Shown here piece after piece: positions 24,917 through 59,634 of a stretch of DNA of 64,000 bases. Position numbers and translations under genes: made by a program. The notes beneath the pieces are model-generated. The model was not told the DNA's origin and did no database searches. It saw only the letters and a program-made list of their open reading frames with translations. Position 1 is the stretch's first letter, and each line of letters begins with the position of its first letter. The stretch is from Bilabrum cf. latius (taxonomy: Eukaryota), in the NCBI GenBank assembly GCA_965178125.1, contig OZ237753.1, positions 558,001-622,000 of the forward strand, read 5' to 3'.

Positions 24917-25286
24917 TATCTGAGAAGAAGCTGCTACCGTTGGCTTTCTTCGAGTGCCCCGCCTGTGCTCTGGAATAAACACCAATCCAACCTCAGATAT
25001 TGACTTGTTTTTAATTTGCAAGTTAGCGTGGTGACACGCGCACAGCTTATCGCTGCAGCAATCAACTGGGTGAGACAGAGCCAGATATGCTGGGCCCAGA
25101 ACGTGGGATTTTGCCCTTTGGAGCGCCAACTGCAGTCAAAAGTATCCAGAATCCCCACTTGATCGAACTTAATTCAAGCAGAATGTATCCCTGGCAACTT
25201 TTAGCCGGTGTTTTGTTCGATTTTCTTTCTTGCGAGGAGGCCGTCTTGTTGGTCGCAAGCATCGATTGTTTTGATCTTCTTCTTGA

Positions 25287-26803: not shown

Positions 26804-29800
26804 TCAAACCCCTGAGCCTCGCAAAATGATGTCCTCTAAAGAGACGCCGCCCCCGATCCGACCTGCTTGCTTTTGAGCACCTGGCGCCTCGCCGTCCGAT
26901 GAATCAGCAGCCCTCTTTGGCTACTCCGAGGTGCGGGAGCCATGCTCACTCTCTGACCCAGCACGCCCATCAATGCCGGCGCGTGCCGCCACTGATGCGA
27001 CCACGATGGCCCTTGCAGAGTCGCTGCCAAGCTTCCACAGGAAGAGCACGATCACCTTGCCCAGCTGCACCAAGGGTTCCTGGAGCACAATATCCACTGC
27101 AAACGCCACGAGGCTGGCTATCACCCACGCTCTCGCCTGCTCGGGCGTAAATAGGATCCCGTACAGACAGCACAGGTAGAACATGAAGCCCACCAGCACT
27201 AGCATCACCCCGTACACCAGCCCGATCATCAGGCTCCTGTCCCACCATGCCTCTTCCCAATCGTTGACCATTCGCTGCCTCCTTCGGCGGATGATTGCTC
27301 TCCGTCTTCGGAGCAGCTGCGCGATGCGACGAGCCGAGGTGCGGAACTTCTCGTCGCCGCGCATTGCCTCCACCAGCTCACTGCGAATCCGTACCTGCTC
27401 TGTTCCCCTCAGTTGAAGCCCGCCGCGGAGCCATTCAAATACGAAATACCCCACCAGCACAGCAATCGCCGGTAGCACTTGCAGGCCAAAGACAGCTGCA
27501 GCCGCCTCTGTAGCGAAAGGGAGAGACAGGGCGCCGAAAAGCGCCCCCCCGATGATCTGCAACACGATCGCAGGCACGATCGAGCACAGCGCGTTCTGGA
27601 CCCATCCCCTCCTGGACTGGATAAAGGACACTGTACCGAGCACTAGCATGGTAAACCCGACTCCTGTAAGTAGCAAGATGGACCACGCTGCCCCATCCTG
27701 ATCCGCCCACACCTCTGCGCTCAGCAGGTACAGCCCCAGCAGCATGCCAACGAATCCAGCCCACACGTACACGAGAGATATGATACCGAGTGAATTGAGC
27801 CACGGCCTAAGCCACGGCTCCGGCAGAGGAGCTCGCGCCGGCCTATCCCTGCCGGATTCTCTACCAGTCGCGGCCTCCAGGCCTGCCGCTCCAGCTAGCT
27901 GCAAGCTCCGGTATGCCCGTCTGCATGTGGCCACAAACTCAGCCTCTAGCACAGCCCAGTCCCACCTGGCACTGCCGACTCCGTCTGCATCGCTTGTGGG
28001 GGCGACCGACTCTATATCATCGCTGTCAGGCTGGAGCTTCGATGGAGCAGTGAAAGCCGCTGACTGCCTACGGACCGAAGGTCTCCGCGGTTCGATCGAG
28101 ACGGCCTTTGGTTGACTTGTTTCTCCGCGCACCAGCCGGTGAGCCAGCGCTGCTGACAGCGCGGCTAGCAGGGTGCGGCTGCTGGTTGGCACATCTGCCT
28201 CCACAGCCGTCGGGTCTTCTTCCTCCCCTTGAATACCCACTAGCAGAGCGCGGCCAAGTCTATTGACGTCCATGGATTCCCTCAGACTCCGGTCGTTTAG
28301 AGAGTTGCCGCGAGTTAGAACGCCTGGTTTTGCCACCACGTTCAGCATGACGCTCTGCACCTCCTCCGGGGTCATGATCGAGGCTCCGCCTCCCCTTCTA
28401 TACACGAACCACTCCAGTGCGGCATCGAGGTCGTTCAGCGCTCCCAGGACCGCCCTAGAAATGCGATCTGCCTGGCGAGGGCTGCACTGCGACTGGTGCC
28501 TAACGATCGTGTCATCTGCGCCTGAGCTTGAGTTGTCATCAGGGTCTCCACTGAAGCGGCCTGCGCGAACCTGGCGCATGCCGCTAATGACTACCTCGAG
28601 TGGTATTGTGGACTGGGCGTCAGGACCGCTGCTTCTGCTCGAAGCATCTTCGTCCTCATTGGAATGCTGTGATGAGCTACCAGCTGACCCAATCCATTCA
28701 CCGTTCGGGGTCTGCTAGGATCCGCCGCCAGTGTTCCCGAGATGCTCCGTTTCAACTGCGGTCGAAGCACCGCCATCATGCACTGGTGGATCGCCGTCAT
28801 CAATCTTCGAGATTCCGGCAGACCCAGCTGTAGGTGGTTTCTCCTGCAAGGCTTCCTCAGAGTTTTGATATTGTTCATGCTGCTGATTATCGTCGCCATT
28901 TTCTTCTGCTACCAAATCTCCGATAAAAGACGGAGTTTCCGCCATGACGCCCCGCCTGGCAGACTCCTGGAGGGCCTCGAGCGCCTCAGCCTTCCTACGC
29001 GCTAGCTCCTTGGATCGCTGCTGGCGGACAGCGTACGACACGTCCAGACTCTCGGCACGAAACGTGTTGATGAAAGCAAACAAGAAGGGGGACAACCGCT
29101 CGACTGGTACCATAGATACAGCAGAAATGGCTGCTGACACGAACCGGGCGGAGATTCGCTCAGCATCGCTCCCAAAGAAAATGGCGTTGATGGCCATTGA
29201 GGTCAGGCAGGTGGCCGTCAGGATCAGCAGGCGCTAGGGCCGGGTCACCACCAGCAGGTCCTCTTTTGGCGTGAAGAAGATGCTGCCCCACATGTGGCCT
29301 CGTCTCAAGGCGTCAATCCATTGCTGGGTCAGGTAGGCCACTACGAGCCAGAGTGTGCCTCTCTGGCGAAGATCCATCCACTCCTATCTGGCATCCTCCT
29401 TGTCCTGTCGAATTGCCTCTAGTTGTGCCCCGAGCCCGTCTTCCTCGCCTCGTACAGCAGCTTCAATGCGATCCAAGTCCACGTACTCCGGATACACCGC
29501 AAATAGCTCTTCTTCCAGAGAACTGGAAGCAAGATCGATCTCTGGGGCACGCTATTCGGCGGATCCACTGAGTTTGGCTCCACGTTTATCGCCAAATCCT
29601 GCTACCTGTAGCTTCTACTCGCCGGACGGAGCGGACTCATCACGAGGAGTAACCTTCATCGAATGCGCGCTTCCTGCCCTGGCCAGCTGGCCCAGAGACA
29701 CACCGGCTGCAGAGAGAGCCAGCTCTCCCTCGGTGCCTTGTCGACTTGCCCCGCTTTCAGAGGCTCCTTCGCTGGCCGCTGCCGCGTACTTAACAGCGAG

Positions 29801-32800
29801 ACTGCGCGACCTTTTCGGTGTTTCAGAGGCGTGAGACGCTGGCGAATCAGAGATATCGTCAAACTCGCTATTTGAGCCTGCTGCACTACCGTTCGACCGC
29901 ACATTTCCCCGCCTCCTCTGTTCGGCCATGATTCGGGCCCTGTATCTCTGCAGCACCTTGAGGTATACCTCAAGCTGGTCCTCGATGTGCAGCTGCTCCA
30001 TTCCCACAGCCCTCTGAATCCGTCCGAATCGAAGCATGTGGGCCTGCCTCAGCTTCCTGAGCTCGGGCCTGCGCCAGCCCTCCACGATGGCGGAAGTGAC
30101 CCAAGCAAACATAAAAGCTAACAGGAGCACTCCAAGCACAATAACTGGGAACAGGTTCTCGGGTTTCAGGTAATTTCTGAGCAGCCCAGCGTCGCCCAGA
30201 GGGTCCACTCGATTCACTGCAGGGATATCCTAGCGCACGAGAGCCGTAAAATCTGAGAGATGCGTCGTCGCACAAAGCGCGGTGCGGCGGCCCGACGATG
30301 GATCAGTCTCGATTCGCAGCAGCACCAGGCCCCTACTTGATTCTTGTTCGTAGCTAGCGCCATCCAGTCCCTGGCACACAAACGACTGAGCTGATGCGTC
30401 TGCCGAGATTGGCAGCCGGACGGCAATTGGGCAGGTTAGGCCACCAATGACCTCGTTTTCGACAGACTTCGCACTTGCAATGCCTACGCTTACAAACCCT
30501 GACGGACGTAATGGACTCGCTGTGCTCGCCGACAGAGCGTCTACCGGTGCCTGTGGAGATCTCTGCCAGTGGACGAGGCGAAGGTCAGTTGCCTCGTTAA
30601 CGGCTGCCGCTGCCCTCCCCACATTAACCGATGCAGACCTGCTTGCTATCGTGGATTGGCTCATGCTCCTTGACGTCGAGATTTGTGCCACACCTGGCAG
30701 GCTAAGGACAAGTGGTTCCTCGCCAGGCACCACATCGATCGCGGCAGAGGCAATCAGCCGCTGCAGCGTGCCGTCCGTCGACGCACGATAGGAGCTCAAT
30801 TGCTGCGACAATGTTCCTTCACTAACCTGCAAACGACGCAGCCCATGCACCCTACGCGCGTTTCGAGTCGAATTAACTGCCAGGGCTGCCTGCAGAAGCC
30901 CTTGGATTTCACGACCCAGCGTCTCCATCGATGCTAGCGCAGATGCCTGGCCAAGGGACTGATCCTGTTCACCGGTAAACATGCCCAGCAGCTCATTGAC
31001 GCCAGCCTGCTCATCGTCGGAAGATACAACGCCGCCTGAGGTTCCAATAGACCCGGGTGCAAGCCCTGCAGCTGAGATGACCTTGTCGAGCAAAGAACGC
31101 AATATCACTTGCAACAGCTCTCGGGTGCCTGGAGGCAACTCGCCTGGGTCGCTAAACAGTCCTGATACCACGCTGAGAGCTTGCTCTGCTTCATCTGGCG
31201 ATGCCTGCTCCAGCTACTGCAGAGAATTGCGAAGGACACTAACGCCGGCTGCACGAAGCTCTTGAACTCCCTGCAGCACGGCGACATCGACGTCGCACGC
31301 CCGCCCGCTCCAGTCACTATCGCATTCGCACACGGCGGTGCAGCCAACCTCATTGGATTGGAAGCAGCCTCGAGCAGATGGAAACCTTGAACAACTCCCA
31401 TGCCCGCTGCATTCCACGACAGGTACAGTTCCATCAGGAGTCGCCGTTTGCGCCCCACTAGAGGATCCTGGACACTGCAGCAAGGCATTGGAGCTGTCAG
31501 TCATTGCATCGCCTTGAATGCAACGTCCAGCAAAACATGTCGCGGAACCTCCACTCTCAGTTTGACAGCTAGATGCATTGCACGCAGGCTCACCAGCAGC
31601 CGAACTTGCGTCGCTGCTACCGACCTTGGTGATGAACGCAGCCTAGTCAGATACCGCTTGCAGCGCAGCGAGGACGTCGTCCACAGCGCGAAAAGCAGTG
31701 TCTTCCCCAAGACTAGTGATATCACCGACCAAGCCATCTAGTCTCTAGATTGCCTCGGCACTCGCGTTTGATGGAGTGTCGCTTGATTCTCCAAGCACGC
31801 GCACTACCAACGGCCGACCGTTGCTTCCATACAGTGATTGAACAGCAGCTCCAAGCTGATCTCGCACCTCTACGCTCAACACCACCACCTGCACTGCTTG
31901 AGGTGATACGGCAAGTGCGGCCCTGGCCTCCTCACTTGGAAACACCTTGACCCCATCAAGCGTCGGCGAGGTGGTAAAGCCGCGGTGCAGGGGCACAAAT
32001 TCTGCCTCTGCAAGTGGGAGCTATTCAGCACCGCCTTCCTCAGACGTAGTCGTACTAGCAGCGACAAGCTACTCTGACACAACTTGTCCGAATCGGTAGT
32101 ACCCGAAGCGATAGGAGAGCGGCATATGCTCAGATGCATCCGTCCAGCCGATGGCCTCCAGCTGCATCCCACCCTACGACAACAGCGAGATCGTGCTTTG
32201 GGATGCCGTCAGGTATCCAGAAGATGGAGGGGCATTGGTATCTACGGAAATGCTCGCTTCTACTTTCCAGTCGGCCAAATCGCTCGAAATAGATAGTCGG
32301 AACGTATATCGAGCACCTGCCTGCAGGGCACCAGGTCGCACCACTGCACCACTGAGACCGGGAACACCGCTGAAAACACTCGAACCGAGCGCGAAAGGCT
32401 GTTCGTCAATGCCCCCTTGCTGCACCACAAACTCAACGGAAGCATCGGAGGGCAAGTCACCAGGTGCCATCATTCTTCCACTGATGCGATCCAAAAACTG
32501 TGTGTTCAAAATCACCCGCCGAGCCGCATTGACCAGTGGTGTTCCATCGGCAGCCTGTACCTCTGGCAACATAGTCGAGGAGTCTAGACCCAGGCGAACG
32601 AGTGGTGGAGCGCTCTAGGAGTCCGCATTGCTGGGCAATACACCAACCGCAACATAGGCTGTTTGCTTTGACGCTGCCAGCGGGTATACGTCCTGCGACA
32701 GAGGTGCAGCCGGATTCCGAGCAATGGTCACAGAGAAAATGAGAACCGATCCTGGGCTACTCCAACCCCCTTGCAGACGCAGCATGGGACCTCTGCGGGT

Positions 32801-35800
32801 CGATTCATCTGGCGACTCTCCCCTTAGCGCGATGGGCACCTGTGTTGGCGGCAGCGCGTCGGGCGAGGTGAGATTCACTCCAGGACACGTAGTCCCAAGC
32901 GAAAACGACTCTGGCAAAGACATAATGCCGAGAGTTGCACTCGTTACAGCAGCATCACTGCTAAGGTTACGAGAAACTACTCTGCAGGACCACGAGATAG
33001 ACAATGGCCGCCTGGTCAGGTCGAGATCAGCTGACTCTCTTGCATCGAGCTCAAAATCCGCGCCCTCGGACACGAGTTGATGGAGGCCGCCGGCGATGCT
33101 TGCGCGCAACCCTGTCGGCCGAGTCACCACTCGCACTGGAGCCGATGCAGACACGGTCGAAATGGCGCCACCAAACGATAGTTGCTGCCTGACCGTAGCA
33201 ACGAGTTCGTACGTCCGACCAGGACGCAGTACGCCAGCCGGGATAGATAGCACACGGCCTCGCTGCTGAGTGTAACGCGCCAACTCAGAATCAGCCAGAC
33301 CTTGTACCGCAAGGCTGGGGTCAGACTTTCCAGCGGTTGGAGCGGCCCCTCTCATGGACCATTGCACAATATCCTGCTGCACAGACGCGTCAACGCATGT
33401 TGACGCAGTCACTCTCGTGTATATCTGGATCGGCCTCAGTGCAGAGCCCGTGACGAGCTCGCCCCCCAGCATGAAAATCTTCGGGACATTGGTGCTGAGC
33501 CTAGACACGGTGATAGTACTTTCACCCAAGGTAGGTGAAAGGAAATTCGCGACTCGGACGCGCAGCGTTACGTTGGTCGCACGCAGAGTGGCAGCGGCAG
33601 GCAATCGAACCGATGCTTGTCTGCCTTCTGGTCCTGCCAAATTGCTTCGGACAGCACTGATGTCCGCAGCAGTCACACCGCTTCCGTGCATGGATACAAG
33701 CGACCAGTAGAACTAAAGGGGTCGACCCAAACTACCGTACGACGCTTGTGCCGATGCCTCTACGACGTCACACGGACCGACCTCAGTTGGAGTTCGGATG
33801 ACAGCGACCGGGGCTTGTGCGTCTGCGCGGGGCGGCTCGACTTGCAGACATGATGCTCCCATGCTGCGAAGCGAGTGCGGTGCCGCCCGGACTTGTCCTG
33901 GTCTAAACACAATCTACGAAAGCTGGCTTGCTGCAGCGACAGAACCAGCCCTTGCGTTCGCCTCAGCCGGGCAGGCAACAACGCCATCCCACGGTCTCAA
34001 AGGCAAGACGGAGGCACCCGGACCCAGAAATATATCAAGAACCTGACTAGAGCGGAACACACACCATGCCGTCTGCCCACGCTGGCCGTTAGGTTGGGTG
34101 GCCAGCATGCCTTCGACGTTCGAGATGAGCTAGCTGCAGGGGCCAGCGAGTGAGCGAGCAGCTCCGATCACGCCATCCACTGCGCTTGCAAACGTGAATG
34201 AAATCTTTGCCCCAGAGGAGTCAAACACAGCAGATGTCGGCAGAGGGACAGGGAGCCTGTCCCGAAGCATAGCTGAGCCAGATGTGAAGCGGTAGACTGC
34301 CTCCTGGTTGGATGCCAGAGGCTAGCTAGGGCCAGCAGCTCTAATTGTGCCACTAGTCACCCTGACAGTCTGGCCAACGCTGACATGCAGAGCTCCCATT
34401 GAAACGGGCGGAACCACAACGAGGGTTGCAGGAGAGTGCCATGCACACATGACGCGGTCGGTGACAGGAGTTGCAGGCTGTACGCCCTCGGGCTACCCGA
34501 ACACCTGTTGCAAAACAGAGTCTGGCAAGAGGGGTCGTGCTCCATCATTGCACGGAAACCCACGTAATCGAACGGCAGAAATGAGGCTATTTGAAGCGCC
34601 TTGTCCGGCTAGACTTGCTGGAAGCTGCGTGGCTACCCGAGCCCCGTTCATACTGGTATCTCTGTCGAACTGCAGCAGCACAGCCTCGGCCACTTCGAGC
34701 ACCCTCGCCTGTAACAGCACGGGCGCCTCGACGAACACGATCTCTTGCACCTGCTGGACCGGTTCCACGATTTCCCGGATAACAACGGAAGTGCTATCTG
34801 GGTCTGCTAGAGGGTTATCGGACTAGCCAGACTGCATCTAAGTCGCGGAGTCGTACTCCGGATCAAAACTCGCGAGGAAAATTTGAGCCACGTTGTCAAA
34901 CCGCAGAGGGGAAGTCAGCGAGCTTGGCACCGAAACAGGCGAGGTTCGGATGGTGAACTCAATGGGTGTCTGCCAGTCGACTGGGTCCACCTCGAGCCGG
35001 CCGCTTCCTATCACGACAAGGAATCCCGTAGATGGACTTGGCTGTGTCTCGAAGGAGACCGAAACGTTAACAGTTGATGCTGGCCGGCTCCCCAGACGCA
35101 GCTGCAATCGAGCATCTCGATGTGTGAATCCAGACCCAGCTTGCTCGATTGCAACGACAATCACGTCGCGAGGCTCAAGCGACAGGCCTATCCGATCACT
35201 CTCGATCAGCGGCAGCTGCAAGGTTGCATTATTCTGAGACTCATCTGAGGCAATGCTCTTATAGACTGGGTCATTTGTTCCAGCTTCGACCACCCGGGCG
35301 GTAACTCTGACCGGCGATCGTGACGGAGTTGCGATGCCGTCAGTCTAGGTGACTACGCGAGCCACGGCAGGGGCGCTCCAGTTGGTCGGGGAGAACACCA
35401 AATCTGAAGAATCCACCATAGTGCGGGAAGCCAATGGCAAAGAATCTGGATCCAACGCCTCGATCTTGATATGCACGCGCCCAAAAGGTTCAGACGTCAG
35501 GGCTACGGCCACAAAAACCACATCTCCTTCCGCTACTGTTGGAACAACCTGATCCTAGTCAGCAGCCAGCAGCATCGTGATAAACGTTTGGTTCAGAGGA
35601 ACCCTAGAATCCGATCTAAGTTGCAATCCAGCTGGGAGCCCGCTGGATGCATCGATGGGAGCAACACCAGGAGCGCTGAGCACCAGAAAGCCCGCCTCGT
35701 CATCATCACGCTGTATGAGTTCAACGCCGATGCCCGTCAGGTACTCGCCATCACCCGACTGCACCGCGATTCTGAATTGAAGAGTCGAGCAATTACTTGT

Positions 35801-38800
35801 TGCGTCCACTCTGTTGTCTGGTATTTGTACCACCAAATCAACGAGGGAATCCCCAGCACCAAGCGACACTGAAGATATGACGCTGCCATCTGCAATCATG
35901 CTTCGAAGATCGACTCCTCTGAAGGCAAGGGGCTACAGCACCGACAATGTGCAGGCAGGGTCCTAGTCCATTCTCGAATACTCCGGGTGTGGCAGTATGC
36001 GAACAGAGGCAGCAGCGCCACCTGGGGAGCCTCCTTGCAGCTGCAGCCGCATGCCGAGCTGGACGCCTTCGTCGGCGACGACAAGCAAGCTACCGTTGCG
36101 ATAGCGCCTGCCATCTGATGCCACGCTCATTGCAGAGCTTGCTTCAAACTCAAACGTCTATATACCAACTGGAAGAGACGAACCGGGCGCAGTGGGTCCG
36201 AACGGCTGCACTGCAAGTAGTGCGATCGGTGCAGGGCTGGGGCTTGCTGAGACGGCAGCGCTTGGCGAAGGGCTTCCGGCAGGACCAGTGATGCTAGGAG
36301 CCGGGACGTGTGTGAGGGTCATGGATGCTGACTAAGTCGGCGTGCTGCTGGGGACAATTGAGGCAGTCGGTGAAGTGCTGGGCGTTGGTGTGGCGCTCGG
36401 GATGCTTCCCCCCATGAAGGCGATGTATACCGCACCTCTGTCGCTGTCCGAATTGCTTACGTCACCCGTGTCGTCACGACGTGCAGAAAATGCCAAATCC
36501 GTTCGACCGTCCCCGTCTAAGTCCCCAATCGCGGCAGCTCGCCCTAAGCGCGCGCCAGACTGCGCGATACGAGATAGACCAGCCGACTGGTAGGTGATCT
36601 TGGTGAGCGATTTGACCGGAGACGATGAACCGCCAGGGTTCATGAACAATATGTATGTGGCGCCAGAGTCCGCTGCACCCGTGTCATCCAGCGGTGCTCC
36701 CACGGCAAGGTCAGAGTGCCCATCTCCGTCCATGTCGCCGATCATTGCTACGTACCCAAACCCGGAGCCAGCCTAAATGGTGCCACTGGGGATGCCCCCC
36801 ACACCGTCTTCGACCAACTCCACAGAGCCTTGGATCACGGTGCCGTTGGAAGCAAGTCGAAACAGGGCGAGGGAATCAGAGTCTAACGAAGGAATGCACA
36901 GGTCCACAGGGTTGCCAAGAAGCCTTGGAGGAACAGCGGCAACGTCCCAGCCCATTCGAGCACTAGACAACCACCCGAGAGAAACAGTTCCACCAAGGGA
37001 TGAAGTCGTGATGACGGTGAATCGCTTCACAGTATCATCACCGTGCATAAAAAGAATGAAAACTGCTCCAGCGTTGCTGACGGGGTCGTCCCACTGAGGA
37101 GCACCGGTTGCGAGGTCCGTGAAGCCATCACGGTCAACATCACCAAGAGACGAAGTCCGGGCCCCAAATCCACTTTGTGACGGTATCATACTGGCCGGGA
37201 TCCCCCCGGATCCGCTATGAATGGGTTGCGTATAGTTTGCAGTCCCATCTGGACGCATACGAAGAATGTATAAACGACCCGCAGATACGTCAGCTCCATA
37301 CTGCCCGCATGCCAGTCGAGGCATGTGGCCATCATCACCTGCAGGCTGGTCGAAGCTGTTGCAGGATCCAAAGAAACCAGACGTGAATGCAGCAATTTCA
37401 GCCCCTCCCTGCGTGGCCGAGATCTTCTAAAAACGCTTGGCTGTGCCATTACGGTGCAGAAATATCACATAGGCGGCGCCGCTATTCAAAGCTCCATCGT
37501 CATCTAAAGCTGAGTGGGCCACGATATCAGGGACACCGTCACCATCAAGGTCACCGATTGGCCTGGGATTGCCTAGTGTGTCTCCCATGTCGAGAATCCC
37601 GGCAGGTAGCCCGCCTGCTCCATCCGCAATTTTTGTAGCCGATGTAACGAAGCCTGCGGCGGCATTGCTAGGACTTGGACTGGCACTAGGACTTGGACTA
37701 GGGCTAGCTATTAAAGACTTCGCTTTAACGATCCACATCGAGCCGGGCTCAGACCCGCCACCATCTTCGGGACGGGCACCGACTGCCAGGTCAGCAGCAC
37801 CATTGCCATCCAAGTCACCGAGACCAGCAACCGACGCGCCGAACAGATCAAGGTCGGCCAGTGTGCCTGCAAAGCCACCCTAAGTGTCAGATATCTTCAA
37901 GTGCCCATTGACCGCGCCAGTCGTGTTGAGGAACAGAATCCAAACCGCACCACGACTGGGACCGCCATCATTATCAAATGGGGCCCCCACTGCAAGATCA
38001 CGGGTGCCGTCTCCGTTTACGTCGCCTACCAGAGACATGGAGAAGCCAAAATTGATATTGACGTAAGCATTGAGGCCGCCCTGGGTTGCCGAGATCTTCT
38101 GGTGGCTCAATACGGTGCCATTCGAAGTGATGAATAAGACACGCACTGCCCCACGAGCGGGACCGCCGTCGCCATCGAAAGGACTCCCAACGGCTAGGTC
38201 AGGTGCACCATCTCGATCTAGGTCTCCAAGAGCTGCAAGCGAGTAGCCAAACTGGTCGCCGTTCTTCATACTACCATTAAAGCTGCCTTCCATGTCCGAA
38301 ATCTTCTAGTGGCCCTTCACGGTGCCATTCTCGGCAAGGAACAGGATCCACGCTGCGCCTCGGTTTGTGCCGCCATCGTCATCAAACGGTGCTCCAACAG
38401 CCAGATCCATGACACCGTCACCGTCCACGTCACCAAGAGCTGCGCTCGAAGAGCCGAACTGGTCGCCGTTGCTCAGAATTCCAGTGAAGCCGCCCTGTGT
38501 GTCTGAAATCTTTTGCTGATGCTTTGCTGCACCGCTGCTGTTCAGATACAGGATCCATACCGCGCCACGATTGGAGCCACCGTCATCATCGCGAAGGGAT
38601 CCCACGACCAGGTCGGGAACACCGTCTGCATCAAAATCACCGATTGCGCTCAGTGAATTTCCAAACCATTGGGTGCTGCTGGCCACACCGGCATCAAAGC
38701 CTCCTTGGGTGGCCGAAATCTTCTAGTGGCCCTTCACGGTGCCATTCCCAGCAAGGAACAGGATCCACACTGCGCCTCGATTTGTGCCGCCATCGTCATC

Positions 38801-41800
38801 AAGCGGCGCTCCAACAGCCAGATCCATGACACCGTCACCGTCCACGTCACCAAGAGCTGCACTCGAAAAGCCGAACTGGTCGCCGTTGTCCAAAATGCCA
38901 GTGAAGCCGCCCTACATTCGGGTGATCTTGGTCTGATCCCGCACAAACTTCGCCAGCGGGCTCGTACTTGGAGATGTGCTCGGGCTGCTGCTTGGGCTCG
39001 GGATGTGGCTCGGACTAGGACTGGGGCTCGGGCTCGCACTGGGCACGCCTCCTCCCAAAAAGGCGATGTACACAGCACCGCGATTGGGACCGCCAGTGTC
39101 GTCCCTCCTGCCACTGATTGCTAGGTCCACGCGCCCGTCACCGTCCAGATCGCCGATTGGTATGGCACCGTTGAGCTACGACCCAGCCTGCACGACGCCG
39201 TTCAGTCCTGCCGTCAGCCGCGTAAGCTTGATAAAGGACTTGACGGGCTCAGTTGCACCACCCACGTTCAAGAAGACTATGTACACAGCGCCAGACTCTG
39301 ATACTCCACTGGTGCTGTCGAAAGTAGCAGAAATGCCTAGGTCAGCTTGACCATCGCCATCGAGATCCCCCAAGGCAGACACAAGACCAAAACTAGATCC
39401 AGCCTAAATAGCACCGTTTGGAATTCCACCGACACCATCCTCAATCAACTCCACAGAGCCTTGGATCACAGTTGCATTCGCGGCAAGCCGCGCGATTGCA
39501 ACGGAGTCGGACGCGAGCGACGAGACGACGAGGTCGACGGGATTGCCAGCTTGCCTAGGAGGAAGAACTGTGAAGCTCCAGCCAAATGACGGCGGGTTGG
39601 ACCACCCGAGCGCTCCCAGGCCTCCAAAGGCAGCACTGGTCAAGATGTTGTACTCCCGTACCGTGTCATTGCCATGCATTAATAGAATAAAAATCGCACC
39701 GCCATCAGCAATGGGTTCATCCCAGCCGGGCGCACTGACAGCAAGGTCATTGAGACCATCTCCATCTACATCCCCGATATCGCCACGACTCCTTGAACCG
39801 AATGCACTATTCGTTCTCAATATTGTGTTAGGCATCCCGCCCGTTCCGCTGTATATCGCCTGAGTATGAGCCACGGTTCCATTGGGTCGCATCCGGAGGA
39901 CGTACGTGCGGCCGCTTGTCGCCGTCACATCATCCGCCCCGTACTGCCCGCACGCCAAGCGAGGTATGTGCCCACTTACGCCAGAAGGCTAGTCGAATCG
40001 GGTGCAAGCACCAAAGTACGAGTGCGGGAACTTGGCTACACCAGCCCCGCCCTCCGCGGCAGAAATCATCTAGAAATGCTTCACGGTCCCATTGCGATGC
40101 AGAAAGAGCACGTAGGCGGCCCCATTGTTCGTGTAGCCCGGCTCATCATGAAGGGCAGAGTGCACCACAATGTCAGGGATACCGTCTCCGTTGAGATCAC
40201 CGATTGGGCTTGGGCTACCGAAGGTGTCCTCATCAGCCAGCGTGTTGGCCGGGAGTCCACCCGTGCCATCGGCAATCTTGACCGCGGAGAGCACGACGCC
40301 GGCAGCGGCGGGGCTAGGGCTGGGAGTGACCGATGGGCTCGTGCTGGCAGACGGGGAAGGGGACGGGCTCGGAGTTGAGAGTAGAGCTGGCCCGACCCGG
40401 ATCTGAAACAGGTACACCGCACCTGCCCTGGGTGCTCCCGTGTTGTCATACCAGGCCCCTGCAGCCAGACTGAGAGACTAAACATCTCCATTAGCGTCAC
40501 CCAAAAGAGCCATGGCCTGGCCTAGTGCAGCATTGTTCATCGTCAAGCCATTCAGGGCTGGCACCGTAGATGATGAGATCTCCGAAAGACCAACGGCGCG
40601 TCCATCCGATCTGCGCAGTTGCATGATGTACAGGGTCCCGCGATTGATTCCGCCCATATCTGCTTCCGGAGCCGCTACCACAATTTCAACAGTTGCATCG
40701 CGCTACACATCTCCGAGGACAGCAAGGCTAGAGCCAACGTGTGTGTTGGCGCCAAAGGCGCTCGGGCCCAGGCCTCCGTTCGAGTTCGAGTAAAGTGTCG
40801 AGTTGCGGACGTACAGACTTCCGTTGGAATGCTGGTCGAATCGGACGAGTAGAACGCCTCCTACTTGCGAGCCGTTGACCACAGTATTCGGTGAGCCGAG
40901 CAGAAGGTCAGGTAGGCTGCAGAAGTCAAGAGCAGGCATGCTAACAGGCTTCCAGAAGTTGCCTAGTGTTGTTCCCATTGTTGTCCACCGCTCCAATCCA
41001 CCGCCGGCAGTCGAGCTGATTGTGGTCACTGACAGCACCGTGTCGTCGGCAGCCAAATGCAGGATGTATGCAGTTGGAGTCCCAGCCAGTGTTGTCGCAA
41101 CCACATCCAGCAGCCCGTCACCGTCCATGTCATCCAAGCCGCCTAGTGCGAATCCAAACTGTCCATTTGAACGCAGCGATCCTGATGGCAAGCCGTTGAC
41201 ACCGCTTGAGATGCGCAGGTGGGAGTGCACCAGGCCGGACGCATTCAGCCGCAGCACGTGCAAGGCCCCTTCGTTGGAATTGAATGCACGCTCACCAACG
41301 AACAGCCTCGGCATGCTGGGGTCATCTCCGAGAGGCTGGCCGCTGGGCAAGCTGCCCATGCCAGCGCCAAGGATTGATGCAAAACCAGTGTCGAATCCGC
41401 TGCTGGGATCGGTCCTTGTTGCAGTATCCTTGGCAATGACGCTGTAACTCATGACACTCCCGGATGAGTCCATGAAGCAGATAAAGATCCGGCCTCTGTT
41501 GATGCCGCCAGTGGTGGTGGCGCTGATTGCAAGATCGTCCACGCCATTGCTGTCAAGATCCCCGACATTTACCACCTCACGGCCGAAGCGATGGTCCATG
41601 TTCAACAGTCCGGACGGAAGGCCACCTTCGTTGTTGCGGATGGCAGTCACACCCATGACAGAAAGGTAAGCAACAGGGGTCGGACTCGGTGTAGCGGAGG
41701 GTGAAGGCGTTGGGGTGGGACTCGGTACAGCCCCGCCCATGAAGGCGATGTATACCGCACCTCTGTCGCTGTTTGAATCACTCGTGTTGCCGGTGTCGTC

Positions 41801-44374
41801 GCGTCTGGCCGCAAATGCCAGATCCACCACACCATCGCCGTCTACGTCTCCAATCGCCTGCGTTATCCCGAGCCGGGCACCCGCCTGGCTCACCGCGCTC
41901 AGCCCTGCACTCTCGTGTGTGATCTTGATGAAAGACTTGATCGGGTGTGCGAATCTGCCAGGGTTCATGAACAGCAGATACACTGCACCAGAGTCTGTAA
42001 CAGTCCCGTCCTCATTCTGTGCAGCGACAGAGAGATCAACAATCCCATCTCCGTCAAGGTCACCGACAGCAGAGACAGCGCCGAAGCCTGATCCTGCCTG
42101 AACTGTTCCATTGGGAATTCCACCGACACCGTCTCCGATTACTTTGGCAGACCCGGGGATCACGGTGCCGTTGGAAGCGAGCCGAAACAGCAGGAAGGAC
42201 GAATACCTCGATGAAACTGCCAGATCCACTGGATTACCTGGCAACTGGGGCGACAAAGCAGCAATCCTCCAGCCAATAGACGGCTCTATCGCCAACCCAA
42301 GTGACGCCAGGCCCCCTAGGGAAGCAATGCTAACGACAGAGAGATCTCGCACGGTGTCGTCGCCATGCATGAACATTATGAAAACAGCTCCTCCATGAGC
42401 AACGGAACCGTCCCAGCCAGGGGCGCTCACTGCCAGGTCGTTGAGACCATCGCCGTCCACGTCGCCGAGGTCGCCAGCGTTCGAGGCACCAAAAAAGTCA
42501 CCACCAGACAGGGTACCCGATGGCAATCCACCGACCGCATTGTAAATTGGCTGTGTATGATGAACGGTGCCATTGGAACGCATCCGTAGGACATAGAATC
42601 GACCACTGCCGTTGGGGACGTCGTCCGCCCCGTATTGGCCGCACGCCATGCGAACCAGCCGGCCGTCAATGCCAGCAGGCTGGACAAATCGCGAGCAGGA
42701 GCCAAAAAACGAGCTAGCGAACGGTGCGATCTCAGCCCCACCCTCGAGAGCAGACACCTTCTGGACATGTTTGACCGTTCCGTTCCGATACAGGAAGAGA
42801 ACGTAGGCGGCGCCGCTGCTCGTTGCTCCATCATCGTCAATAGGGGCGTGGACGACGACGTCAGGAACACCGTCCCCATCCAGATCGCCAAGCGGGCTCG
42901 TGTTACCCATCGTGTCACCGGCATCCAGTAGCCCACTCGGGAAGCCCCCGGACCCGTCTGCAATCTTGACAGCCGACAGGACCGTCCCAGCCGCGGCCGG
43001 TGCTGGGGAGGGGGAAGGGCTGGGCACCGGACCGCCGAGAGTTGCGATCACCACCTCGCCTGTGTCAGTGGCCGCATGATCGCTGCGACTGAGGCCAAAG
43101 ATGATCTCTTTCCGTCCGTCCCCATTCACGTCATCGAGCGTTTTGCCAGAGAGGCCGAACTGGGAGGAGTCCGTCTCTACATTTGCGCTAAGAACAGGGG
43201 AGGTGTTGTTGAGAATGTCGTAGCTCAGCACCTGCCGGTCAGCGCCGAGGTAGAGCATGAAGAATGCACCGGGTGCTCCACCGGGGGCTGGATTCGGCAC
43301 GGAGAGCGCTCCGACCAAAATGTCGTCGTTCCCGTCCCCCGACACATCACCCAGCGGAGCGACAGAGTACCCGAATCCTGAGGACGAAATGGCGGGACCA
43401 CCGGCAGGCAACCCTCCGACGCCGTCGGCAATCACTGTCACCGTGCCAGCGACGCTGCCATTCCTCGCAATAGGAATGATCATGACGCCACGGTAGTTGG
43501 GCGAGGATTGCATGAGCTCGAATACGACCGAGCTGTCGCTTCCGCTTCGTGGTGGCAGCACGTCAAGATCGTAGCCCAGGAGCGCCATTGCGGGTATGCC
43601 CAGCGCGACGGCGTCCAGCTGACCCCCCGGCTCCTGCGAGAGGCGCGTGTAGCTTTTGACCGTGTCGTTGCCATGCATAAAAAGCACGAAGATTGCACCC
43701 TCGCTGCTGCTGCCAAGTCTGTTGGCCGACGTCACCAGGTCGTTGTAGCCGTCGCCATCAATGTCACCGCAGGCGCCTGTGACGCCATGACCCAGCTCAT
43801 CTCCATGAACGATGCCGTTGCCGGCAAGCACACCGGTTGCACTGCCGTCGATTTTAGTGTACTAGGCCACTGAGCCGTTCACATGCATCCGAGCAACGAG
43901 CAGGCTGCCCCCGCCGCTTGAGAACGGCACGCCCACCAAAAGCCTACGTAAGCTCGGATCGGGCCCACGCGGCTGTGACATAGTGCTCAGACCCATGCCA
44001 GGCCTCCCATTCGAAGGAAAGTCAGCAGGATCGAGGCCCGCTGAGGCCGCCGACAGCTTTGCGACCGATCGCGCTGTGAGGTTAGCTTGCAAGAAGACCA
44101 CATAGACCGCCCCGCCCCCATAAGCGCATGCAACAAAATCATCAGTACCATCTCCATCAATATCACCGGCCGAGGCCACCATGTAGCCGAACAAGTCACC
44201 TCCAGCCAATAATCCTTCAAGAGCGCCTCCGGTGTCCGCGTTGAACACCGAGATTGAGCCAATCCTACCCGTCGGGGCTGGACTGGGCGATAGACATGAG
44301 ACAATACAGATCATCAAAGACAAAATCACAGGATAAAGCCATGCTGGCAAGCGTGTTGGTCCCATATTCGGCAT
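26804..44374 (-). CDS. Gene C: giant (~5,856 aa) intronless FG-GAP-propeller / Ig- or Calx-like / REJ / EGF / GPS / multi-TM polycystin-1-like receptor, TAG read as Gln
   Basis: All pieces from 43862 to 26921 share one frame with more than 30 TAGs, ending at TGA 26804-06. Signal peptide MPNMGPTRLPAWLYPVILSLMICIVSCLS. FG-GAP modules at 36400-44250. LVFSPTNWSAP motif near 35380. REJ-like motifs (SYGSLGRPL*FYW, AIGWTDASEHMPLSYRF). EGF-like CSGHGSC...CECDSDWSGRAC near 31290-31420. GPS end CATTHLSDF near 30250-30275. PKD1-type TRP*RLL motif at 29234, then TM segments. Confidence 0.88.
38297..38914 (-). repeat. Recent internal duplication of one FG-GAP blade in gene C (38297-38497 and 38714-38914, offset 417 bp)
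   Basis: Near-identical DNA, e.g. atcttctagtggcccttcacggtgccattc and ccagtgaagccgccct occur in both copies. Confidence 0.9.
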
Positions 44375-45177
44375 CCTGGCTAGAAGAAGCGAAGAATGCG
44401 ACTAGCGGACTGCACGAAATGCTGCGAAATGGGACATTCAACAGCAGCTTAATTGTTAAGCAGATCTTCTGTATATCCCGAACTAGCTGCGTCAACGAAT
44501 CCCTGCGTTGGAGGCTGGAATGGCGGCTAATAACACTGCGTGGCAGCAATAACGGATTGCACTCTACTCAGTCTCTACGAGTGCGACAGCACCGTATGTA
44601 CATCATTATATCAATGTATCGGCAAATTTGGAATTCATTTGCAATTCGTTCCGCAAGAGGGTAGCAATTACGTATTTCTGGTCGACTTCCACCGAAATCA
44701 GCATCGGTCCTACAGCACGCATTTGCCAAGATATCACGACGAAAATGCCCCAATCAACTTGTATAGTATATAATCCTACCATTTTTTGCATGGAAGCCCT
44801 AGAAATATCAGCCAATAGGGAGCAAACTAAATCCAAGCGACGCGCGGGTTAAACGATATTGGCGCCTGCAACTGGCGTTTTGAAAGATCTCACACCCTGG
44901 AACAATTTTTGAATACACTATACACAATCTAGCTGTCTGAAACCCAACTTCAACTGGAGGATCAGTTCAAATTAGCCTCGATTCGGACCCCGCCTGGCTG
45001 GCAACAATTGGTCGCAACAGCCCCATTCAGGCTCCGGGTCAACTTGAAGTTCATCAATGCACGCCCGGCAACAGCGTCCCAAAACATACCTAGGTGATTC
45101 CAAATGTGAGCTTGCGCCATTGCAAGAATCTGTATCGGCCTAACAGCCTCAGCTCGCCCATGAAAGCCCGATTGGAC

Positions 45178-48100
45178 TCATTCGCCCCAGCCTCCTGGTT
45201 GCTGCATCATCGCCGCCACGGTGAAATCCCGGGGCGGCACCACAGCCGGAACACCGAGGCCCCTCGGTCGCTGCACGGTCGAGTGAAGAATCGCACCATC
45301 GCTCCGCCCGCGATACTCGGCGTACAGCACGTCTTGCAGCGCGCACACCCTCCTGACCTGCTCCTGTTGGAGATACATCTCAGGGCAAGGAAGCCGGGAG
45401 GAAGCGTCGCCTGCACCGCGAGGGCGCGATGCATGGCCCAGCTTCTTGGAGTTCCCGATCCGCACGCCCGCCGCCGCCTCCGTAAAGCTATTCCTCTTCC
45501 TGGACTCAGCAGCCTTGAAGGCACCTCTATGCTCCTCCTCTGCGCGGCGCCGCGCCTCCCTCAGCAAGCGGAACTTGCTCAGGTGAGCAGTCGAGTACCC
45601 GTCCGCCACGCTCGGCCTGGCATCAATCCCCATTGAGGCTGCAAGCTCCCTCATATTCTGCAAATCAACGCTGGCATCGCCGCGTTCTGCTCGTGCCCCG
45701 CCCCCAGATAGACCAACAGAAGAAACCCCAGGCCCCGTGGAGCGGATTGCGGCGAGTAGCCCGTCGCTTGAGCCGCCACCCAGCCGGTGTTCCTTCGTGC
45801 TGACGTACTCGGGCTCCCACCACTGCAGCCCAGACTGCTGCTGAAGCCCTGTGCCACCCCCCTTCCTGCTCGGCCTAGTGGAGCTGCTAGATCTTGCAAC
45901 ATGATCAAGTCCGAGCTCAGATTTAACACCTGCCAAAGACTTCTGACGACGAATATCGTCGGAGCTTCGGGGTGCTTGAGTCGGTGTGGGCGTTCGCGGC
46001 GGCTTCCCCCCATCATCGAGCCCGTTCGATTGGCCCGATTGCCGCTACCTGCGGGGCTGCGGCTCCTCTGCTCCATTTGGTTGGATTCGGGGAACGCCTG
46101 AACCGCCATCTTTGATTGGTACCGTCGTCGTTGTAGGTGTCTGCAAAGCACTCGGTGGTGTTGCAGACCCTCCGTCTCGACCTCCAGCCCACCCTGACTG
46201 GTGCTGGCCATGCCCTTCAGTGGTTGTGGGGGTCGATGCAGCGTCGGATTCACCGCCCTGCCGATGCTGCAGCTACTATTGCATGGCATGCATATTAGTC
46301 TGGAAGGTGCGTCCCACACGCAGAGGAAAATCGTCTCGTAGCCTAGCCAGGGCCTAGCCCTCGTCCGCGCCCTTCGCCCTTGCCTCCTCAAGCACGGCCA
46401 AGTCTTCCCGCAGTACCTACCGCTGCGTTGCGATCGATACTTGGCCCCACCCACTTCCTCCGTCCCTTCTGGCTACAGGTGAGAGAGGCAGTTCCCTGGC
46501 AATGGCAGCATCCCTCACCTTGCGAGCAACGCTGCTGGACAGTACACGAGTGCCAGCCATCCCTGGCACTAATCCAAACGATGATTGCGACGATATTGTT
46601 CGCTAGACGTCGCCCTGCGACGCTTCCGAGCCTCCGGTGATGGTTCTGCGCACAGCGCCTGCGCCCTGGCTGCCGCTGCTCACAGCAAGCGAAGAGCCGT
46701 CCGCGGTTGTGAAACCAGTGTGTAGTCGCGGTGCATGGACCACACCTGTCAGCTGCTTGCTGGTCATAGGTGCAAGAAGCGGTCGCGCCCTCGGCGGCCT
46801 CACCAGCTGGCGAAAGGGCGCCTCCGATCCGAGCTGGAGCCTGCTGAGCAGCTCCTCGGGCGGCAGCCCGTACAGTCTAGCCAGCATCGCACCACCCACG
46901 AGCGCAGCTCTACCCCTACCCGTGCCTGAGAAAAGGTAGATCTTCTCGCCGCGGCGGATGCGTGCTTCTAGGGCCTCGCACAGCCGAACGAGGTGCTGGT
47001 CCCTTGGCGTCGTGCCGTACTCGATCGGAAACTGCAAAAAGTGGACCTCGGACGGATAGCTCCGGAACAACCCTTTCACCTTCGACCATCGCTTGGACGC
47101 CTCTGCAGCCTCTCGCTGCAGTCGCAGCACTTTGTGGATGGCGTACCCTTGTTCCCTGGCTCTCTCCGCTCTCCCCTTGATTTTGAGGTAGGTGGTCTCC
47201 TCCCTCGCCCGGAATGCGTTCTTTCTCTTCCTGATCTCACGCACCACCCTCCTGGCTTCGTCTTCCGCTCGAGAACGCCTTTCGGTCAGCTCCTCATCGG
47301 TGCACAGGCACACAAAGGTGGTGATACCATCCGCGAGGAGTGCCCCGATTGCCGTCTCCCGGGCTGCCACCTCCAGCACGCTCACCGGGGCGCTGGGGCC
47401 CGGCACACCCTCCCTTGACACTACCGACTCTCCCTTCGCCTTCAGTTCCGCCAGCTGCGCCTAGAGGTCCGTTTGCCCCGTGACCGCCCCTCGGTACCGA
47501 GCGGCGCTCGAGGGCCCGATGGGCGCAGGGCCAATCTGCAGGTGGGGCCGCATCAGCCAGAACGATGTGTCCAGGCTTCCCCTAGAAAGCTCTCGGAATC
47601 GCTTCCAGACCGCTGACTTAGCCACCTCGCGCTCCCCGCTGCTGTGGATCACAACCCCGGTGGGCAGCAGGCGGGGCAGCCGCATGCCCAGAGCAGGGTG
47701 CCACATCACATCGCCGACGAGGCCGGTCGACACAGGCGGCAGAAGCATGCCACGCTCTTTGGCCCCCGGCTCCACCGCCTTCTCTAGACCGGCTCGCGCC
47801 GTGGTGTGGTGCAGGGCAACGCGCTGCTGTGACGTAAGCTGCAACCCATCGGTGGGCTATCCTGACGTGCCCAGAGGTACCAAAGCGCGAGACACTGTCT
47901 CTGCGAGCGGGTCATGCGGAACCATCGAATCTGACGCAGGAGGCAAGTCCGAAGCGCCGCTACCATCACCCCCCTCTGCCTTTCGCAGCATGGACGCAGC
48001 GATCTGCATGGTGCCTTGTCTGGCATCAGCGGCAGTGGAGCTCGACTCACCCTCAACAGCCGAATCAGCCGGTGCAGCTTCGACTGCATCTAGCGCCCCG

Positions 48101-53166: not shown

Positions 53167-53198
<32 letters not shown>

Positions 53199-54273
53199 TC
53201 TGTCCCAGCTCGTCCTGCGGCCCATGCCGAAAATACACGCTCCCGTTCCACTGGCTACCCGCCTGCGCCGCCCCTGCCCCTGCCCCTGTCGGCATCTCGT
53301 TCCCACCAGCCGAGCCAAGAGTGCCGGCACCAAGGAAGGAGGTGCTCTCGATACCAAGGCTGCCCGTTGAATTGTCTCCGGCATCGAGAGCACCTCCTGC
53401 TCGTAGGCTGCTCGCCAGGCTGTCCTCGCCTGTCGCTGCCAAGGAAGGGTGCTGCTGCAGTCCTTCCGCAAACTGGGGCTCCCCTGCTCGCTTGCGAGCG
53501 TACTCGCCCTGAGCAGTTGCTCGCAGGTCGACGAGCAGACTAGGGGTGGCGTCAAACCCGGCGAGGCGTGCTCGGTCCTTGGCCTGCAGCGCCTGGCGCG
53601 AGGCTCCCATCATCCTGGTGGGCGGCCGCCTCGCAAGTTCGGGCGTGGATGGCCTGCCGAACACAAGGAGGTTGGCACGAGACATCGAGGCGTCTGCTGC
53701 GCCTACTGAGTGGCCGTGTCGAGCTTGCTTCTCCATGCTTCGCTGGCCTGCTTGCGTCACAGCCGCCTGGGCTCTCTAGCCTAGTGATGGAAGCGGTCGT
53801 GGGTGCACCGCTTCGACTCTGTACAGCCTCGCCCCGCCGGGTCCTTTGCGGACGTGTGGCTGTCCGTTGGCGCCCGGCAGCACAATTCCCTACCGCCACC
53901 TGAACTGGGATCCGTACTCTCCAGAAAGGAAGTAAATTCGTTCACCCTCAGTAAATATTGTACGCAACGACATTCTGCGGTTCGATGCAAGCTCCTATGG
54001 CTGTACTGGAGCAGATTCGCCCGGGTGTGAAACACCTCGCAAAACCATCGTAGCGTGCTCTTGCTGCGGAGTCAAGTCCACGAGCTGCCGTGCTACCCGA
54101 TTTAAAGCTTCAGACGAATCGAATCCACTTTCATTGGGGTTGCACTCTTTGGATTCATTTGCTGCAGTGCCATCGGTTGACGCATCAGCCAAGCTATCTT
54201 CCTTTAGTCTTTGCCGACGCAGTGCGTCATTGAGCGATTCGCTAAGGTCAATGTGCTAGATCCTACGTTTCAT
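45178..54273 (-). CDS. Gene D: large (~3,030 aa) mostly low-complexity protein with an IQ motif and a C-terminal PTP/DSP-fold pseudophosphatase domain, TAG read as Gln
   Basis: Pieces 53995, 53062, 51871, 50899, 50014, 49201, 48685, 48271, 47857, 47461, 46603 and 45178 share one frame, joined by TAGs, ending at TGA 45178-80. The most upstream in-frame ATG is 54273. IQ motif CMRIQRAWRAYW near 52095-52130; polyQ near 53170-53200. Phosphatase-fold motifs: SFWLMRPHLQIGPAP, GITTFVCL, HFLQFPIEYG, GEKIYLFSGTGRGRAALV. Confidence 0.75.
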
Positions 54274-59471: not shown

Positions 59472-59634
59472 GCACTGGACTGGACTGGTCGCGCGTGTAA
59501 CGACAGACACGGCCTTGGTACAATCGGCGCATGGCTTGGCGGAACCGGAACACGCAGCCGCACTTGCCGCACAAACACATGGCCATGTATGGAGCATCAC
59601 AAGCAACTTCCTAAATTAAACTTCAACGTAGTCA

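Follow-up and report, generated by a model that had tools for sequence, protein, structure and literature searches.

Is TAG read as a stop or as an amino acid in the long genes of this locus, and, if it is an amino acid, which one? The question was raised by the repeat region of a giant gene designated gene C (positions 36773 to 40072, minus strand), which harbored ten in-frame TAG codons within three FG-GAP propeller units, with starts at 40070, 39989, 39404, 39176, 38912, 38723, 38306, 37880, 37427, and 36773; the whole 64-kb stretch of DNA that was analysed is referred to here as the window. Judged from sequence comparison, the window very probably represents nuclear DNA from a eukaryote that is rich in GC, carries spliceosomal introns, and uses UAG as a regular Gln codon, with UAA and UGA still ending translation. 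UAA and UAG are nearly always reassigned together; the code pattern of the window is that of NCBI translation table 15, a rare but previously known code variant.

The window had a GC content of 0.60 overall and 0.63 at third codon positions. Gene A (3 to 7151, plus strand; 5' end outside the window) harbored REJ and GPS domains (26.3 and 39.6 bits, respectively) and 14 in-frame TAG codons, 13 of which were common to gene B, and was closed by TAA (7149 to 7151). Gene B (7307 to 25129, minus strand) was a 5940-aa ORF with 30 in-frame TAG codons and a TGA stop (7307 to 7309), and it displayed the same architecture as gene C. Gene C itself (26804 to 44437, minus strand) was a 5877-aa ORF with 41 in-frame TAG codons and a TGA stop, and it was composed of FG-GAP propellers with Ser/Pro linkers, then a REJ domain (61.7 bits, E=6.6e-17), a GPS-like HLSDF motif, and a membrane region. 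The Pfam FG-GAP matches had E values of 1.7e-77 in gene B and of 4.3e-86 and 2.8e-37 in gene C. With domains exceeding the curated Pfam cut-offs, genes A, B, and C are predicted to encode FG-GAP/REJ/GPS (polycystin-1-like) receptor proteins; no polycystin channel domain was found in the three genes. Gene D (45178 to 54273, minus strand) was a 3031-aa ORF with 23 in-frame TAG codons and a TGA stop, and gene F (59635 to 61707, plus strand), which had two in-frame TAG codons and a TGA stop, encoded a GH141-like protein of 690 aa with a right-handed beta-helix fold.

When TAG was read through, fragments of at most 1042 aa were joined into ORFs of 2382 (gene A), 5940 (gene B), 5877 (gene C), and 3031 aa (gene D), and these ORFs contained 108 in-frame TAG codons among 17,234 codons, with TAA or TGA present only as the closing stop; the off-frames of the same four genes held 96 TAA and 847 TGA. 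Gene A was 98.2% identical to the final 7.1 kb of gene B, of which it formed an inverted copy. The two copies differed at 129 codons, 84 of them synonymously, and 83 of the 134 changed bases were located at third positions; with two-thirds of the codon differences being synonymous, the copies appear to have been under purifying selection. In-frame UAG was thus common inside genes under such selection, the 13 shared TAG codons included, and its share of all Gln codons would be approximately 15% across giant genes B to D.

TAA and TGA were both kept as stops. The TAA of gene A matched the codon position of the gene B TGA, and the similarity of the two copies ended right after these codons, with unrelated AT-rich sequence beyond in both; TGA closed not only gene B but also genes C, D, and F plus two smaller genes. 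About eight gene ends were visible, all of them TAA or TGA, with TAG being read through by construction, so the window cannot show a TAG-ended gene. This leaves room for a TAG with two meanings by context, namely Gln within a coding region and stop where certain genes end, and context-dependent codes are known in karyorelict ciliates and Condylostoma, as described in 10.1101/2022.04.12.488043 and PMC4967479. Against such a double use stood three results: (i) the last shared TAG (7107 to 7109, plus strand, in gene A, equivalent to 7349 to 7351 in gene B) was located 14 codons before the real stop, and 10 of the 13 codons after it differed between the copies, 7 of these 10 synonymously, a coding-type divergence which indicates that TAG was read as sense there; (ii) the A/B homology ended at TAA/TGA, not at TAG; and (iii) TAG was nearly as frequent in frame (108/17,234) as in the off-frames of genes A to D (284/34,468 codons). 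A context-dependent TAG is accordingly improbable, and TAG as a regular sense codon is the reading carried into the comparisons below.

The residue at TAG was addressed by aligning FG-GAP blades and homologues and tabulating the TAG columns, as the sequence-only reading had proposed in claiming Gln; a unit alignment was used for the repeats, since plain self-BLAST of genes B and C yielded only 39 HSPs with noisy columns. Gln ranked first in all three profile tests, which shared sites and were not independent of one another: (i) among the internal propeller repeats, Gln scored +13.2 nats, followed by Ser at +2.7, Glu at -13.9, Tyr at -29.2, Leu at -30.5, and Lys at -36.5, with Trp also far below Gln, and 57 of 61 sense codons were recovered in the control; (ii) with 150 outside homologues, which covered four of the ten TAG sites of the query, Gln scored 9.1 versus 3.5 for the next residue His and -0.1 for Ser, and 49 of 57 sense codons were recovered; and (iii) with a blade model for which none but outside blades (2076) were used, Gln scored 7.1, Glu 4.1, and Ser 0.2, the margin of Gln over Glu being only 3 nats, and 56 of 61 sense codons were recovered. 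At the two VKGH-TAG-KIS columns, Gln made up 231 of 530 and 232 of 576 residues of the outside homologues. The identity of the TAG residue as Gln was supported by these alignments.

In the alignment of 12 units, Gln accounted for 40 of the 231 residues paired with TAG, which was 6.6 times the background. Resampling of 22 sites placed the pattern beyond chance: the observed Gln score was reached by none of 5000 random-site samples and by none of 2000 samples for each of the 19 other residues, and it was reached by 10.9% of the samples drawn from true Gln sites. The motifs from which the sequence-only reading had argued were all located in frame, namely VKGH-TAG-KIS (38306 and 38723), KISDT-TAG-GG (37880), AI/TI-TAG-AGS (39404 and 36773), and HF/RF-TAG-M/KIS (40070 and 37427) in gene C together with NAD-TAG-FG (21872) and IR-TAG-PLG (17357) in gene B, and sister repeats with Gln were indeed present in the unit alignment. 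Its picture of TAG occupying Gln columns held at 14 of the 22 TAG sites of the repeat alignment, which were positive for Gln; the remaining eight were negative and fell in columns without Gln in the sister units (position 1245 of gene C in a conserved Asp column and position 1320 in a Gly column), and the list of motifs had therefore been selective. The same reading had cited TRP-TAG-RL at 29234, as a putative instance of the PKD1-family TR.QR motif, and the tandem TAG TAG of gene D (46273 to 46278, minus strand; context ATG CAA TAG TAG CTG CAG CAT), and both were found in frame as well.

The comparison was also applied to close duplicates, in which three codon swaps involving TAG were identified. 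Two of them, both real as earlier claimed, were TAG/CAG: TAG 1083 to 1085 (plus strand) of gene A had the counterpart CAG 13373 to 13375 (minus strand) in gene B, and TAG 38912 to 38914 (minus strand) of gene C had the counterpart CAG 38495 to 38497 in a tandem blade duplicate, the two 207-nt blade copies being 90% identical in DNA and having a second TAG in common (38723/38306). The third, left out of the earlier account, was TAG/TAT: TAG 7892 to 7894 (minus strand) of gene B corresponded to TAT 6564 to 6566 (Tyr) of gene A, and it was the sole swap pointing away from Gln. Among closest paralogues, the partner of TAG was CAG at seven of 15 sites and Ser at three; conversely, TAG was the closest partner at seven of 69 true Gln sites versus none of 231 Ser sites.

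These partners bear on a Ser reading of TAG with TAA kept as a stop, which has a precedent in the green alga Scotinosphaera, where only UAG is reassigned and TAA and TGA are stops, as in the window (PMC8271138). Besides its three paralogue partners, Ser came second in the internal-repeat test, and the Ser/Pro linkers and high GC would be compatible with a green alga. However, Gln was favoured over Ser by 7-10 nats across the three tests (10.5 in the repeats, 9.2 in the outside homologues, and 6.9 with the blades from outside proteins only), the Gln score was never reached in 2000 samples of 22 sites drawn from true Ser sites, TAG was the nearest partner of none of the 231 Ser sites, and no TAG/TCN swap was found in the close duplicates. 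TAG encoding Ser is therefore very unlikely.

Gln as the meaning of TAG would also be compatible with translation table 6, in which TAA is Gln as well and would merely be rare in a GC-rich genome; the high GC of the window, third positions included, lowers TAA use, and Ulvophyceae are a known TAR-to-Gln group (PMC2984419, PMC8271138). The counts spoke against it: no in-frame TAA was found in the 14,848 codons of genes B to D, while approximately 37 were expected beside their 94 TAG from a CAA:CAG ratio of 155:390, and the off-frames of genes A to D did contain TAA. Moreover, the TAA of gene A was located exactly where copy B had TGA, with AT-rich unrelated sequence beyond, and in ulvophytes TGA is the only stop found according to PMC2984419. 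A table 6 code can hardly apply here, and the preferred reading remained Gln for UAG alone.

The contigs of several sequencing runs were consistent with a eukaryotic source and with TAG as an encoded letter. A small minus-strand gene (54763 to 57075) contained three GT..AG introns (54763 to 54854, 56560 to 56786, and about 56891 to 57075), all spliced out in the contigs of X5, X6, and X10 but retained in the DNA run X1; such spliced joints in three runs identify the source as a eukaryote. Four X5 contigs spanned 44932 to 54290 without gaps or differing letters, and all 23 TAG codons of gene D were kept. The same letters were given by four runs from three studies, with the contigs of three runs coming from two other studies, which argues against sequencing errors and gave no sign of editing, and contigs from runs that also carried spliced forms retained TAG. 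Survival of TAG in mRNA has good support that falls short of certainty, because run X5 was flagged 'probably DNA'. No run listed with the stretch was on record as RNA. The transcript ends inspected showed no evident poly(A) signal of the TGTAA type. That the TAGs are untranslated (pseudogenes, sequencing errors, or mRNA editing to CAG), for which nothing specific spoke beyond the default that the standard code assigns to any in-frame stop, has next to no probability given frames broken by TAG only and never by TAA or TGA, A/B divergence under purifying selection, and identical letters across runs with TAG kept beside spliced forms.

As for how UAG would be read as Gln, a tRNA-Gln with anticodon CUA may decode it, and eRF1 may largely have ceased to recognize this codon, by analogy with the systems described in PMC5304391. 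Such a tRNA-Gln(CUA) would differ by a single base from tRNA-Gln(CUG), the reader of CAG, and could not pair with UAA. New TAG codons would then arise mainly via the now-silent C-to-T change from CAG to TAG, and this would explain both the TAG codons at Gln columns and the TAG/CAG pairing in recent duplicates. The tRNA scan of the 64-kb window detected no tRNA gene, and the Rfam scan of the same stretch gave no match; eRF1 was likewise not among the genes encoded there. For table 6 groups, the accepted reassignment route combines mutation of a tRNA-Gln with a change in eRF1 (PMC2984419, PMC5304391).

The reading of UAG as Gln was further set against known systems. The cited sources describe nuclear genomes splitting UAA from UAG in only a handful of lineages (PMC11687900, PMC5304391), with a UAG-only Gln code (table 15) in the fornicate Iotanema spirale, in Protocruzia tuzeti, and in two lineages of phyllopharyngean ciliates, Hartmannula sinica and Trochilia petrani (PMC11687900, PMC5304391). 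These lineages shared with the window UAG at Gln columns and UAA plus UGA as stops (PMC11687900, PMC5304391), but the phyllopharyngean genomes have 27.4-53.6% GC (PMC11687900) versus approximately 60% in the window, and the window displayed genes of 9-18 kb without introns, with introns of 92-227 nt elsewhere. Table 6 TAR-to-Gln groups, which include Ulvophyceae (Dasycladales, Cladophorales, Trentepohliales, and Blastophysa), many ciliates, hexamitid diplomonads, Streblomastix, and Amoeboaphelidium, likewise reassigned a stop codon to Gln (PMC2984419, PMC5304391), but TAA is also Gln and TGA the sole stop there, whereas in the window TAA ended gene A and was absent in frame. Scotinosphaera differed in the residue, its UAG being Ser. 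'Code 15' phages (crAss-like and other gut phages; PMC9523058) use TAG as Gln as in the window, which in contrast was eukaryotic nuclear DNA with spliceosomal introns.

The source might tentatively be a eukaryotic lineage without a previously known variant code, GC-rich and intron-bearing, possibly an alga or other protist and neither a ciliate nor a fornicate, and might then represent a further independent origin of the split between UAG as Gln and UAA as stop, although we consider this somewhat less probable than the contrary. No paper found in the literature search described UAG alone as Gln in an alga or protist of high GC; such cases could be present in supplementary files. One more UAG-only case, in a genome with high GC and long genes, would inform how the two codons can be separated by eRF1 and tRNA-Gln(CUA), and it would bear on the importance of low GC for code changes of this kind. 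In practice, annotation under the standard code would cut genes at approximately six TAG per 1000 codons, reducing genes of 3000-5900 aa to pieces of at most 1042 aa, and table 15 is needed for annotating the assembly.

Several TAG sites added little to the identity of the residue. At 29234 of gene C, the window's own paralogue appeared to have Met in a weak alignment with six of 20 flanking residues identical, and a PDB sequence search with the region around this site gave no matches. The C-terminal halves of genes B and C were only 25% identical, and their TAG columns were thus uninformative. For gene F, 39 homologue matches were found and 28 aligned; both TAG columns varied among these homologues and therefore say nothing on the residue. 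Two scans of metagenomes, for which genes F and D served as queries, found no relatives. Neither gene A, with one homologue match, nor an epimerase-like exon allowed a usable placement in taxonomy; for the exon, the best match was 96% identical, with named matches at most 43% identical.

The window had a GC content of ~60%, and scans of it found no tRNA genes and no Rfam matches. Under the standard code, the longest open reading frame (ORF) of the window was 1042 aa, and the region 36773-40072 was split into ~180-aa pieces; with TAG read through, four long ORFs were obtained: gene A (3..7151, forward strand, 2382 aa, 5' end open), gene B (7307..25129, reverse strand, 5940 aa), gene C (26804..44437, reverse strand, 5877 aa), and gene D (45178..54273, reverse strand, 3031 aa). 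As assigned by Pfam, genes B and C contained FG-GAP propeller units of ~420 aa each, separated by Ser/Pro-rich linkers and followed C-terminally by a REJ domain, a GPS-type motif, and a membrane region; gene A was the REJ/GPS/membrane portion of a B copy. The coding region of gene B also harbored a 36-base tandem repeat (15084-15293, reverse strand; 5.8 copies, 93% match), giving a 12-residue protein repeat. Gene D displayed a weak dual-specificity phosphatase match (PTP-SAK, 23.1 bits, cut-off 27) at residues ~2378-2464 (~46800-47400, reverse strand), and visual inspection suggested Ser where the catalytic Cys would normally stand; this may be an inactive phosphatase-like domain.

Genes A to D contained 108 in-frame TAG (14, 30, 41, and 23, respectively) in 17,234 codons, and TAA/TGA were present in frame solely as the closing stop codons; the two off-frames of the identical stretches contained 96 TAA, 847 TGA, and 284 TAG. 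Sequence comparison showed that gene A was an inverted duplicate of the gene B tail, with 98.2% identity in a gap-free alignment of 7125 bases: the two 7.1-kb copies of the REJ/GPS/membrane part (3-7151, forward strand, and 7307-14460, reverse strand) were arranged tail to tail around a 155-base AT-rich spacer, and they may represent either genuine paralogues or a pair of alleles that the assembly merged into one sequence. The two copies shared 13 in-frame TAG and differed in 129 codons, 84 of them synonymously, with 83 of the 134 changed bases at third positions, and therefore purifying selection has acted on both copies in this frame. The final shared TAG lay 14 codons upstream of the end; of the 13 codons past it, 10 differed (seven synonymously), one difference being AGG versus CGA (both Arg), and the similarity broke off directly behind the two stop codons (TAA for gene A, TGA for gene B), beyond which unrelated AT-rich sequence was found. 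This coding-type divergence, together with the point at which the similarity ended, indicated that TAG was non-terminating even near a real stop and that TAA and TGA both terminated. TAG is thus almost certainly a sense codon.

Part of the window was present in eleven public sequencing runs, of which four (X1, X5, X6, and X10) were aligned to 44001-64000. In this interval, DNA run X1, the probable source run, was unspliced, and contigs of X5 and X6 (from one study) and of X10 (from another) joined 54762 to 54855, 56559 to 56787, and 56890 to 57076, leaving out segments bounded by GT..AG on the minus strand; therefore, these three runs contained RNA-derived sequence, and the organism was a eukaryote whose genes carry spliceosomal introns. 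Four X5 contigs spanned 44932-54290 without gaps, so that all 23 TAG of gene D were retained, and X6 and X10 retained TAG wherever they covered it among the pieces listed. No differing letters were reported in any of the four runs, and these identical letters and the retained TAG argued against sequencing error and RNA editing, with the caveat that X5 was labelled 'probably DNA'. The joints belonged to a small spliced gene (54541-57400, reverse strand) with three GT..AG introns (92, 227, and ~185 nt), one of them in the 3' untranslated part, a TGA stop at 56124-56126, and a Cys-rich product with a hydrophobic stretch at the C terminus; X5 and X10 contigs, among those listed, started at 54541, possibly a transcript 3' end. 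The one ordinary enzyme gene, an intron-split NAD-dependent epimerase/dehydratase-like gene of the reductase type (61960-62436 plus 62678-63610, forward strand; TGA stop), had a 96% identical protein in public collections, and its named relatives were at most 43% identical. Metagenome scans with genes D and F as queries found no relatives.

The sequence-only reading had assigned Gln to TAG from internal repeats of gene C (36773-40072); its TAG positions and sister motifs all proved correct against the frames and the unit alignment, as did the TAG/CAG swaps in near-identical duplicates (1083 versus 13373-75, and 38912 versus 38495), and a further swap was TAG 7892 versus TAT 6564. Residue identity was tested in four ways, which overlapped in sites and were not independent, and all four agreed. 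(i) In an alignment of 12 propeller units from B and C, TAG was paired with 231 residues, 40 of which were Q (6.6-fold over background), the strongest enrichment among all residues. Leave-one-out column profiles, summed over 22 TAG sites, scored Q +13.2, Ser +2.7, Thr -12.6, Ala -12.8, and Glu -13.9 nats, with Tyr (-29.2), Leu (-30.5), Trp (-34.8), and Lys (-36.5) the lowest listed; this procedure recovered 57 of 61 sense codons. The Q score was positive at 14 sites and negative at eight, and the observed sum was reached in 0/2000 resamplings of 22 sites from each of the other 19 residues, in 0/5000 of random sites, and in 10.9% of draws of true Gln sites. (ii) Closest paralogues were chosen by local flanks, and the partner codons of the 15 TAG sites passing the flank filter were CAG (seven), Ser codons (three), TAG (one), and one each for Glu, Gly, Lys, and His; conversely, TAG was the closest partner at 7/69 true Gln, 0/231 Ser, 1/65 Glu, and 3/265 Ala sites. 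(iii) A 1200-aa query from gene C, in which X replaced TAG, was compared by phmmer with the best 150 of 46,089 relatives, giving 671 domain alignments that covered four of the 10 query TAG sites: at the two VKGH-TAG-KIS columns (38306 and 38723), Q made up 231/530 and 232/576 residues, the summed scores were Q 9.1, His 3.5, Thr 3.3, and Ser -0.1, and 49 of 57 sense codons were recovered. (iv) A single-blade model built exclusively from 2076 blades of outside proteins (the best 150 of 46,089 relatives) found 56 blades in B and C with 12 TAG on match columns, scored Q 7.1, Glu 4.1, Arg 2.8, and Ser 0.2, and recovered 56 of 61 sense codons. Gln ranked first for TAG in each of the three profile tests (i, iii, and iv).

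Several sites spoke against Gln or gave no information. Eight of the 22 TAG sites in the 12-unit alignment fell in Q-free columns; a single degenerate unit contributed two of these, one at an Asp conserved in the calcium-loop motif (C 1245) and one at a Gly column (C 1320). At 25% identity, the C-terminal halves of genes B and C had diverged too far for their TAG columns to be used; TRP-TAG-RL of gene C (29234) had been set against 'TR.QR', a motif ascribed to the PKD1 family, and the paralogue residue at this TAG was Met in a weak alignment, a PDB sequence search with the surrounding region gave no match, and Pfam found no channel domain. Gene F (59635-61707, forward strand), one of several smaller genes, was an intronless GH141-like right-handed beta-helix protein gene with two in-frame TAG, the columns of which were variable among 28 homologues; its 39 homologues were 22-35% identical, the few with an organism name were bacterial, and the gene may have been acquired by an ancient transfer and have taken on the code of its host afterwards. 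With Q first in the profile scores, the initial observation was confirmed and its reading supported: from these alignments, TAG very probably encodes Gln.

Genes B to D contained 94 TAG beside 390 CAG and 155 CAA in 14,848 codons, TAG therefore representing 14.7% of these three codons, and their GC content at third positions was 0.63. In ulvophyte algae with the TAR-to-Gln code (UAA and UAG both Gln), TGA was the sole stop found, according to the portion of PMC2984419 consulted. That code was ruled against by the absence of in-frame TAA in genes B to D versus ~37 expected if TAA were Gln at the CAA:CAG ratio, which set the window apart from these algae; TAA and TGA are, with high confidence, stops.

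Reassignment of UAG has been described, in the consulted parts of the respective papers, (i) to Gln, with UAG alone changed (NCBI table 15), in Iotanema spirale, Protocruzia tuzeti, and two phyllopharyngean ciliate lineages (PMC11687900, PMC5304391), (ii) to Ser in Scotinosphaera (PMC8271138), and (iii) to Leu in a rhizarian (PMC11687900, PMC8271138, PMC5304391). The window fitted table 15 on each feature tested and is a further case of this already described variant. The GC content and gene structure of the table 15 ciliates, as far as given in those parts, were unlike its own. The literature searched, supplementary files lying outside the search, held no report of a UAG-only Gln code in any alga or protist with a GC-rich genome. 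The origin may be independent if the organism represents a new lineage. By analogy with cases in the consulted part of PMC5304391, UAG would be decoded by a tRNA-Gln(CUA), which differs from tRNA-Gln(CUG) by one base and does not pair with UAA, and eRF1 would be weakened for UAG; neither gene was within the window. In Iotanema, a T32G change of eRF1 has been reported (PMC5304391), an example of an alteration in the N-terminal domain, which bears the GTS, NIKS, and YxCxxxF motifs.

The low-complexity, acidic gene E carried a 72-base coding repeat (58913-59077, forward strand; 2.3 copies) with TAG at the identical position in two copies. Over 1.3 kb around this repeat (58008-59341), the summed word depth was very high and false joints were numerous in every run, in keeping with a GAG/GAC-rich simple sequence. 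A 39-base tandem repeat (63703-64000; 7.6 copies, 96% match) continued beyond the window end.
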